In this document: piece by piece, positions 16,007 to 16,878 of the stretch
How the letters are laid out: each line of letters starts with the position of its first letter
Position numbering within the stretch: position 1 is the stretch's first letter
Assembly (NCBI RefSeq): GCF_024298765.1
Contig: NZ_CP101210.1
DNA from: Escherichia coli
GTDB taxonomy: Bacteria; Pseudomonadota; Gammaproteobacteria; Enterobacterales; Enterobacteriaceae
Length of the DNA stretch: 64,000 bases
Direction: 5' to 3' (one strand)
The notes under the pieces: model-generated
Databases searched by the model: none
What the model was told of the DNA's origin: nothing
The model's input: the letters and a program-made list of their open reading frames with translations, nothing else
Program-made: the position numbers and the translations under genes

Positions 16007-16033
16007 ATTTCAGGGGTAGCATCTTTGCTGTAA

Positions 16034-16062
16034 TGACATTAGCGTTACATGTACTGTATAAT
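16034..16062 (+). promoter_or_regulatory. putative sigma70 promoter with operator palindromes for the toxin-antitoxin operon
   Basis: TGACAT-17 bp-TATAAT; palindromes TAATGaCATTA and TACATGTA overlap it. Confidence 0.5.
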
Positions 16063-16093
16063 TATCATCCACGCAAAGCCGAAGGATATATTT

Positions 16094-16387
16094 ATGCCAG
16101 CAGCCAATAACATTCCAGCCAGGCGCGAATCTTTAAACTTGCGCATAAAACCCGCAGAACGCGATCTTATTGACCGGGCCGCTAAAGCCCGAGGAAAAAA
16201 TCGCACCGAATTTGTCCTTGAGGCCGCCAGAGCCGCAGCTGAAGAGGCGCTCATTGAGCAGAGAATTTTCAGGATCGATTCTGATGATTATCAGCTATTT
16301 TTGAATCGTCTGGATCAGCCCCCCGCGCCCAATGCTGCATTACGCAAAACCATGCAAACACCCGCGCCGTGGGAGCAAAAAAAATGA
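16094..16387 (+). CDS. DUF1778-type antitoxin (TacA/KacA/AtaR-like)
   Basis: 97 aa [46 protein letters not shown]; AGGA RBS upstream; stop overlaps the toxin start (ATGA). Confidence 0.85.
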
Positions 16388-16878
16388 TTCAGGCCCCCGA
16401 GCCACTCATGGCAAGGCATCAATTCACCTCTTTTTGCTCGGGAGTAGAAACGATGGATAACTGGCTAAAGCAGAGAGCCCTAAAAAATCAGCTTGCCGGC
16501 GCATCACGTACATTTGTTAGCTGTGATACGTATAGCAACGTTTTGGCATATTATTCGCTTGCTTCCAGCGCCGTTGAAACGTATGTCGCGACAGGACGAT
16601 TTCGCCGAAATATGCCAGAACCGATCCCTGTTGTAGTACTTGGTCGTCTGGCAATAGATAAATCATTACAGGGTCAGGGCATCGATCGTGCGATGGTCAG
16701 AGATGCCGGTCTACGAGTACTACAGGCGGCTGAAGTCATTGGTATTCGCGGAATGTTGGTCCATGCGTTATCAGACCAGGCCCGTGAGTTTTATCTGCGA
16801 GTGGGGTTTGAACCATCGCCTGTCGATTCTATGATACTGATGGCAACATTGGCTGATTTGCAGGAATGTCTTAAATAG
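16384..16878 (+). CDS. GNAT-family acetyltransferase toxin (TacT/KacT/AtaT-like)
   Basis: 164 aa with GNAT acetyl-CoA motif [15 protein letters not shown]; translationally coupled to the antitoxin. Confidence 0.85.

Follow-up and report, generated by a model that had tools for sequence, protein, structure and literature searches.

The window analyzed here is a stretch of 64,000 nucleotides of Escherichia coli DNA (contig NZ_CP101210.1) in which rluC (minus strand) and rne are followed by 2 small ORFs and then by flgL and flgK (Table 1). A previous reading of this DNA from its letters alone (the earlier note) had described the 2 small ORFs as a 97-amino acid antitoxin that overlaps a 164-amino acid GNAT toxin by an ATGA, and the translation bears this out exactly (overlap at positions 16384–16387). 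The layout is that of the GNAT/DUF1778 toxin-antitoxin (TA) operons: the antitoxin comes first, the toxin second, the reading frames overlap, and a single promoter lies upstream. The ATGA overlap implies that translation of the antitoxin and the toxin would be coupled.

Table 1. Genes and sequence features of the rne–flgL interval (positions are those of the window)
Feature	Position	Strand	Basis or remarks
rne	12775–15960	+	
rne intrinsic terminator (context)	15979–16002	+	Terminator scan: 10-pair stem, then T-run
Acquired segment, approximately 864 bp	16030–16893	+	Allele alignment; promoter, antitoxin, toxin, short 3' tail
Sigma-70-type promoter, ATGACA-18 nt-TATAAT	16033–16062	+	11 of 12 consensus matches
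Candidate operator palindrome TACATGTA	16046–16053		8 bp, in the -35/-10 spacer; read directly from the sequence
Candidate operator palindrome ATAATTAT	16058–16065		8 bp, over the -10 element; read directly from the sequence
Shine-Dalgarno AAGGA of the antitoxin	16082–16086	+	7 nt 5' of the ATG; read from the sequence
Antitoxin gene, 97 aa, TacA/DUF1778	16094 (ATG)–16387 (TGA)	+	N-terminal ribbon-helix-helix, C-terminal toxin-binding tail
ATGA start/stop overlap, 4 nt	16384–16387	+	A8 run in front
Toxin gene, 164 aa, TacT2-like, GNAT aminoacyl-tRNA N-acetyltransferase family	16384 (ATG)–16878 (TAG)	+	
GNAT motif A, codons 96–101 (Q-G-Q-G-I-D), acetyl-CoA pyrophosphate-binding loop	16669–16686	+	Alignment with 10 characterized toxins; columns over 120 homologues
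Codon 101, GAT = Asp	16684–16686	+	SNP A at 16685; GGT = Gly in most E. coli carriers
Codon 137, TAT = Tyr, catalytic tyrosine	16792–16794	+	Equivalent to TacT2 Y137, TacT Y140, AtaT Y144
flgL intrinsic terminator (context)	16903–16931	-	Terminator scan
flgL	16973–17926	-	

The mechanical ORF list gave longer versions of both genes, with the antitoxin starting at 16049 (112 amino acids) and the toxin at a GTG at 16369 (169 amino acids). We took the shorter ATG starts because homologues and RefSeq use them, and RefSeq gives the same coordinates in identical or nearly identical genomes. An A8 homopolymer (16377–16384) directly precedes the ATG of the toxin. Two apparent variants of the gene pair were rejected. 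A cluster of 141-amino acid 'truncated' toxins (P0006) has identical DNA and reflects the choice of start by the gene caller, and a 260-amino acid antitoxin-toxin fusion (P0002, L066 1247–1375) comes from a singleton assembly that lacks 2 bp ahead of the A8 run, so that slippage in the run is not its cause. Such fusions were seen in singleton assemblies only.

The promoter region from approximately position 16030 onwards, GTAATGACAT...GCGTTAC...TGTATA.TTA..ATCCA, is conserved in E. coli, in Escherichia sp. E4385, and in the tacAT2 loci of Salmonella and Leclercia, and the sequences upstream of it are unrelated. The palindromes in and over the promoter are candidate operators through which the antitoxin or the TA complex may autoregulate the operon. 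The rne terminator is kept upstream of the 2 genes both in alleles that carry them (occupied) and in alleles that lack them (empty) and is conserved in Escherichia albertii; the flgL hairpin is likewise common to occupied and empty alleles. Because the terminator scan found no T-tailed terminator on the plus strand after the toxin gene, and the next hairpin is the flgL terminator, transcripts of the module are predicted to run convergently into the flgL hairpin. Antisense to the C-terminal half of rne, the minus strand has a 560-amino acid ORF (14266–15948), most likely a by-product of the biased, repetitive Arg/Glu/Pro-rich rne coding sequence rather than a gene.

To assign the 2 proteins to a family, we compared them with Pfam, NCBIfam, PADLOC, and PDB sequences. 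The antitoxin matches the Pfam family TacA1/DUF1778 (PF08681, E = 1.5e-26), with weak RHH_1 and NikA-like matches at residues 10–50, and is identical to chain C of PDB entry 7AK7 at 79 of 97 positions (81%, E = 1.4e-45). Further structure matches of the antitoxin are chains of 7F37 and 7ZG6 (DUF1778/CopG family), KacA, and the partner chain of the AtaT entries. The toxin matches the GNAT families Acetyltransf_7 (E = 1.7e-6) and Acetyltransf_10, and its best structure match is chain A of 7AK7 (E = 1.4e-75, 119 of 162 residues identical, 73%), followed more weakly by 5FVJ, 7AK8, 7F36, 7F37, and 9ILR and then by KacT, AtaT, and 6G96. The TacA1, Acetyltransf_7, and 7AK7 matches greatly exceed chance expectation. 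Except for the engineered Y137F substitution, 7AK7 chain A is the TacT2 sequence of Salmonella Enteritidis given in supplementary table 4 of PMC9177977, and the closest characterized relative of the module is therefore TacA2-TacT2. The likeness to this Salmonella enterica system (PDB 7AK7; Rycroft et al. 2018, PMC5959882) extends to the two-gene architecture, the protein lengths (97 and 163–164 amino acids), full-length and gapless identity of 81% for the antitoxin and 73–74% for the toxin, the promoter core (GTAATGACAT...GCGTTAC...TGTATA), the ATGCCAG start, and residues K29, R88, and Y137. The systems differ at 43 toxin positions overall, among them position 101, which is Ala in TacT2 and Asp in the window. 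As to selection, the dN/dS values against Escherichia sp. E4385 are 0.09 (antitoxin) and 0.14 (toxin). Some RefSeq records name the antitoxin gene 'type II toxin-antitoxin system TacA family antitoxin'.

These matches also bear on an alternative in which the GNAT protein, instead of being a toxin, would be an acetyltransferase of housekeeping or metabolic function (RimI-like or similar) that happens to lie beside a small ribbon-helix-helix regulator. The Pfam matches, which are to generic GNAT families, and the absence of an NCBIfam equivalog would be compatible with such an enzyme. However, all 15 significant PDB matches of the protein are TA toxins; it has 73% identity to TacT2, whose toxicity and neutralization by TacA2 were shown by experiment (PMC5959882); its gene overlaps by 4 nt that of a TacA1-family antitoxin; and the module is accessory, being present in 13% of E. 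coli genomes, and not core. Scanning both proteins with the NCBIfam profiles, including the RimI-like and other curated housekeeping models, and with the PADLOC defence models gave no match, a result that is informative only in that it excludes curated housekeeping and defence families. The housekeeping alternative is thus effectively refuted. By homology and gene arrangement, the locus is identified as a chromosomal type II TA module of the GNAT/DUF1778 (TacAT) family with Salmonella TacAT2 as its nearest relative. The earlier note had placed the pair among the DUF1778/GNAT modules of the TacAT/AtaRT kind, and both the PF08681 match and the best structure matches, all of them TA toxins or antitoxins, agree with it; the protein search against characterized toxins that it had proposed returned TacT2 as the closest relative and no RimI-like or other NCBIfam family.

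We then examined the functional residues of the toxin in an alignment with 10 characterized toxins. The alignment recovers the published numbers of the catalytic tyrosine in TacT (140), TacT2 (137), TacT3 (143), AtaT (144), KacT (145), and ItaT (150), which validates it. In TacT2, the Y137F and R88G substitutions each abolish toxicity, and potency is set by a polymorphism at position 29, which is Lys in Enteritidis and Glu in Typhimurium (PMC5959882). The window toxin keeps K29, R88, and Y137, so that the catalytic tyrosine and the positively charged tRNA-binding residues are present. Identity to the window toxin is highest for TacT2 (74%; 73–74% depending on the comparison), followed by TacT1 (47%), AtaT2 and GmvT (43% each), AtaT (30%), KacT (29%), and ItaT (17%). 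In a neighbour-joining tree of 12 sequences, a rough distance tree built in part from machine-read sequences, the window toxin and TacT2 are sisters within the group formed by TacT1, TacT2, GmvT, and AtaT2. TacT1, AtaT2, and GmvT share with the window toxin the sub-tree, a DUF1778 partner, and 43–47% identity, which places them further from it than TacT2. GmvT is encoded on a plasmid, and AtaT2 at a different E. coli O157 locus. GNAT toxins of this group (clade D: TacT, TacT2, GmvT, and AtaT2) acetylate Gly-tRNA(Gly) nearly exclusively in vivo (Bikmetov et al. 2022, PMC9177977), and placement in clade D therefore predicts Gly-tRNA(Gly) as the target. We consider it quite likely that toxins of the window type have this target; confidence is moderate because the tree is rough and because the set of targets acetylated by TacT2 in vitro is broader (PMC5959882). 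The statement in the earlier note that the tRNA target could not be predicted from the sequence thus gives way to a specific prediction, drawn from the 73–74% identity to TacT2 and the position in clade D.

The distribution of the module was determined in 5,426 complete E. coli genomes, of which 686 (approximately 13%) carry it. Each carrier has a single, chromosomal copy at the rne–flgL site, and 680 of the 686 copies reach an identity of 99% or more; the carriers include the reference EPEC strain E2348/69. The remaining 4,740 genomes have the empty allele, a gene-free spacer of approximately 193 bp. The earlier note had stated that K-12 has no genes between rne and flgL, had regarded the module as an accessory insertion, and had suggested comparing this spacer across E. 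coli; these counts confirm its statement, and the accessory character follows from the 13% occupancy and from an empty allele that is common to E. albertii. Alignment of occupied and empty alleles shows common sequence up to approximately 16011–16029 and again from 16894, with approximately 50–64 bp of unrelated filler between these points in the empty allele. The E. albertii spacer is empty and holds the same filler as the empty E. coli allele, which indicates that the empty allele is ancestral and that the module is an insertion-replacement; the rne–flgL spacers of E. fergusonii and C. koseri are empty as well. Within the 18 bp at 16012–16029 (AGGGGTAGCATCTTTGCT), CAGG..TA recurs in E. albertii and CATCTTTG in the empty allele of E. 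coli. Since these 18 bp resemble the empty alleles, they are ancestral spacer and the true left junction lies at approximately 16029/16030. The span 16030–16878 proposed in the earlier note accordingly comes close to the acquired unit, as homology to the Salmonella and Leclercia tacAT2 promoters also begins at 16030. From this comparison of alleles, a segment of approximately 864 bp was gained horizontally after the split from E. albertii, replacing approximately 50–64 bp of spacer. The flanks of the insertion showed neither direct nor inverted repeats, and no IS elements, integrase, or mobility genes.

Outside E. coli, the cryptic-clade strain Escherichia sp. E4385 (L055) carries the module with identical junctions. 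Synonymous divergence from E4385 is 0.15–0.20 for the module and 0.35, 0.56, and 0.71 for rne, flgL, and flgK, respectively (window 12775–19581). The low value for the module fits a later spread between Escherichia clades by homologous recombination via the flanks, with the caveat that the genes are short. In Salmonella, TacT2 (P0047, 99.4% identical to the published sequence) adjoins PAP2/dsbD/cutA/dcuA and not rne–flgL; another Salmonella variant (P0031-type, in a different island) and the Leclercia copy also lie away from rne–flgL. Because the site differs (dsbD/cutA in Salmonella vs rne–flgL here) and synonymous sites are saturated, E. coli must have acquired its module independently, as a homologue of TacAT2 that is not its positional orthologue. 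More distant relatives of 46–71% identity, collected in a contig search for exact peptide patterns, are mostly from Alpha-, Beta-, and Gammaproteobacteria; this search missed Salmonella and E. coli, for which synteny was recovered through protein look-ups. In Salmonella (L052–L054 5669–6454) and Leclercia (L056–L057, approximately 5663–6448), the TacAT2-like pair is followed by 2 small minus-strand ORFs of approximately 150 and 83 amino acids, which have no Pfam match and are absent from the E. coli insertion. The occurrence of this trailing pair in 2 genera suggests a larger conserved block. In S. bongori, the flgL–rne spacer (L063 3539–5787) holds 2 unrelated genes (MFS transporter, LysR regulator), which shows that the site took up different accessory DNA in different genera.

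Several apparent exceptions to this distribution did not hold up. An apparently decayed remnant in strain HS-02 (NZ_CP172818.1, L058 560–1205) aligns column for column with the intact module and is homopolymer-ridden assembly noise, in consequence of which RefSeq gives HS-02 a partial GNAT pseudogene only. H25, considered as a different allele, has an ordinary empty site. Nor do the plasmid and phage matches give evidence of carriage by such elements, since they are mislabelled chromosome-sized records or relatives of 65–72% identity. Two PLSDB 'plasmids' that carry the rne–flgL module at 99.2% identity, CP088669.1 (730 kb) and NZ_CP141089.1 (4.9 Mb), have the size of a chromosome or are pieces of one; mislabelled replicons of this kind could mislead inferences on mobility.

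Many type II TA modules are linked to phage defence, and the main role of the module might accordingly be abortive infection, with the toxin released upon infection. Its accessory nature and its horizontal spread across Proteobacteria would suit this role. Against it, no PADLOC defence model matches either protein, the module is a solitary 864-bp insertion outside any defence island, the single match in a phage collection is a mislabelled Salmonella chromosomal contig, and the allele of the window, described below, would be ineffective in any case. We therefore regard a main role in phage defence as highly improbable.

The feature that sets the window apart from most carriers of the module lies in GNAT motif A. 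The consensus of this motif is Q/R-x-x-G-x-G/A, and the window toxin reads Q96-G-Q-G99-I-D101, with Asp at the last position. The acetyl-CoA-binding motif is thus broken in the window toxin, and it is intact in the G101 form encoded by E2348/69, from which the window toxin differs by D101 vs G101 as the sole change in the allele comparison. Among the 120 best homologue clusters, column 101 is Gly in 113 and Ala in 3 (116 of 120 with G or A), and Asp occurs in a single cluster (P0001), the one carrying the window variant. All 10 characterized toxins have Gly or Ala in this column; Gly also occurs in LI60C3, Escherichia sp. E4385, and Salmonella, whereas residue 101 of TacT2(SEn) is Ala. In complete E. 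coli genomes, an exact 61-mer with GAT (D101) was found in 76 and the same 61-mer with GGT (G101) in 601. The D101 carriers include APEC O78:H4 strains, APEC O2-211, and many poultry isolates. Of 60 sampled copies of the module, 7 match that of the window at 100% identity along their entire length; this proportion is about that of the 76 D101 carriers and so fits a single haplotype, the 2 sets being compared by proportion only.

The consequence of this substitution can be judged from AtaT of E. coli O157:H7, the toxin of the AtaR-AtaT module. AtaT shares with the window toxin the family, the fold, and a nearly identical SLQGQGxG motif. The D101 column corresponds to AtaT G108 (SLQGQGID aligned with SLQGQGWG), and the spacing to the catalytic tyrosine is 36 residues in both proteins. 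The G108D substitution, which was made or isolated in the laboratory, abolishes the toxicity of AtaT by blocking acetyl-CoA binding (PMC7595197), whereas the D101 of the window is a natural allele in 76 complete genomes. AtaT is only 30% identical overall to the window toxin and is a member of clade A, which is basal and of broad specificity (PMC9177977), so that transfer of the G-to-D effect draws on homology of one conserved loop. A precedent for a natural single substitution that weakens a TacT2-type toxin in one lineage is the E29 of S. Typhimurium TacT2 (PMC5959882). There, however, a different residue is changed and the binding of tRNA is destabilized; the effect predicted for D101 is a block of acetyl-CoA binding, and the window toxin has the 'potent' K29. 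Judged by these comparisons, the window toxin is probably unable to bind acetyl-CoA and non-toxic, with antitoxin and promoter intact, and the G101 form of the toxin is very likely toxic. The broken motif A weakens the claim for an active toxin in this copy and leaves the family descent of the locus unaffected.

Alternatively, the TacAT2-like module could be fully functional in the window too, with D101 as a tolerated polymorphism and Gly-tRNA(Gly) still acetylated. This is conceivable since the ORF is otherwise intact in the 76 genomes in which the D101 allele persists, as a still-functional allele would also be, the toxin keeps K29, R88, and Y137, neither antitoxin nor promoter is damaged, and the active TacT2(SEn) tolerates Ala at position 101. 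On the other hand, a negative charge beside the CoA pyrophosphate is a standard route of GNAT inactivation. Asp was found in no homologue cluster other than the one that carries the window variant (1 of 120), and the homologous AtaT G108D protein is non-toxic because its acetyl-CoA binding is blocked (PMC7595197). We hence consider a functional D101 toxin unlikely. As to its origin, we lean slightly towards the view that D101 marks a naturally detoxified TacT2-like toxin of single origin, now fixed in a lineage of E. coli that is associated with poultry and to which APEC O78:H4 and O2-211 strains belong. The overall reading of the earlier note stands with respect to the family and the accessory insertion and falls short with respect to the target; it also missed G101D in the acetyl-CoA-binding motif. 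It had held that clustering of the GNAT protein with housekeeping acetyltransferases and lack of toxicity when expressed alone would speak against a TA module, and the D101 allele may well be non-toxic in this way, for a reason other than the one envisaged there.

Altogether, the explanation we find likely is that of a horizontally acquired TacAT2-like TA module whose toxin is disabled in this window by G101D. According to this model, the single promoter would drive a translationally coupled antitoxin-toxin operon; the N-terminal ribbon-helix-helix of the antitoxin would, by homology, repress this promoter, and its C-terminal tail would block the toxin. Turnover of the antitoxin is assumed, from the family, to depend on Lon. 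Once freed, the ancestral toxin would use acetyl-CoA to acetylate the alpha-amino group of a charged tRNA, most likely Gly-tRNA(Gly), and the acetylated Gly-tRNA(Gly) would stall translation elongation. In the window copy, the G101D change in the acetyl-CoA-binding loop would most likely prevent acetyl-CoA binding and leave a non-toxic protein next to an intact antitoxin.

The discovery value of the module itself is small: it is already annotated generically in RefSeq, and its family, mechanism, and structures are well established. It is individually uncharacterized, and within the literature library searched, no paper mentions the RefSeq protein accessions of the pair. In practical terms, the analysis identifies an uncharacterized TacAT2-type module that approximately 13% of E. 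coli carry, E2348/69 as the EPEC reference strain among them, with a likely Gly-tRNA(Gly) target that is predictable from clade membership, and a natural G-to-D change in the acetyl-CoA loop that probably disables the toxin in one lineage. The one mildly surprising element is that a laboratory loss-of-function mutation recurs naturally in one E. coli lineage. Counts of intact TA modules that are based on annotation, or links drawn between TA content and persistence, would miscount the D101 lineage. If the proposed loss of toxicity is true, this lineage would retain an intact, expressed antitoxin-repressor beside a toxin that has lost catalysis and may still be able to bind the antitoxin or tRNA, and it would represent a snapshot of the domestication or decay of a chromosomal TA module and a natural control for TacAT function in E. 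coli.
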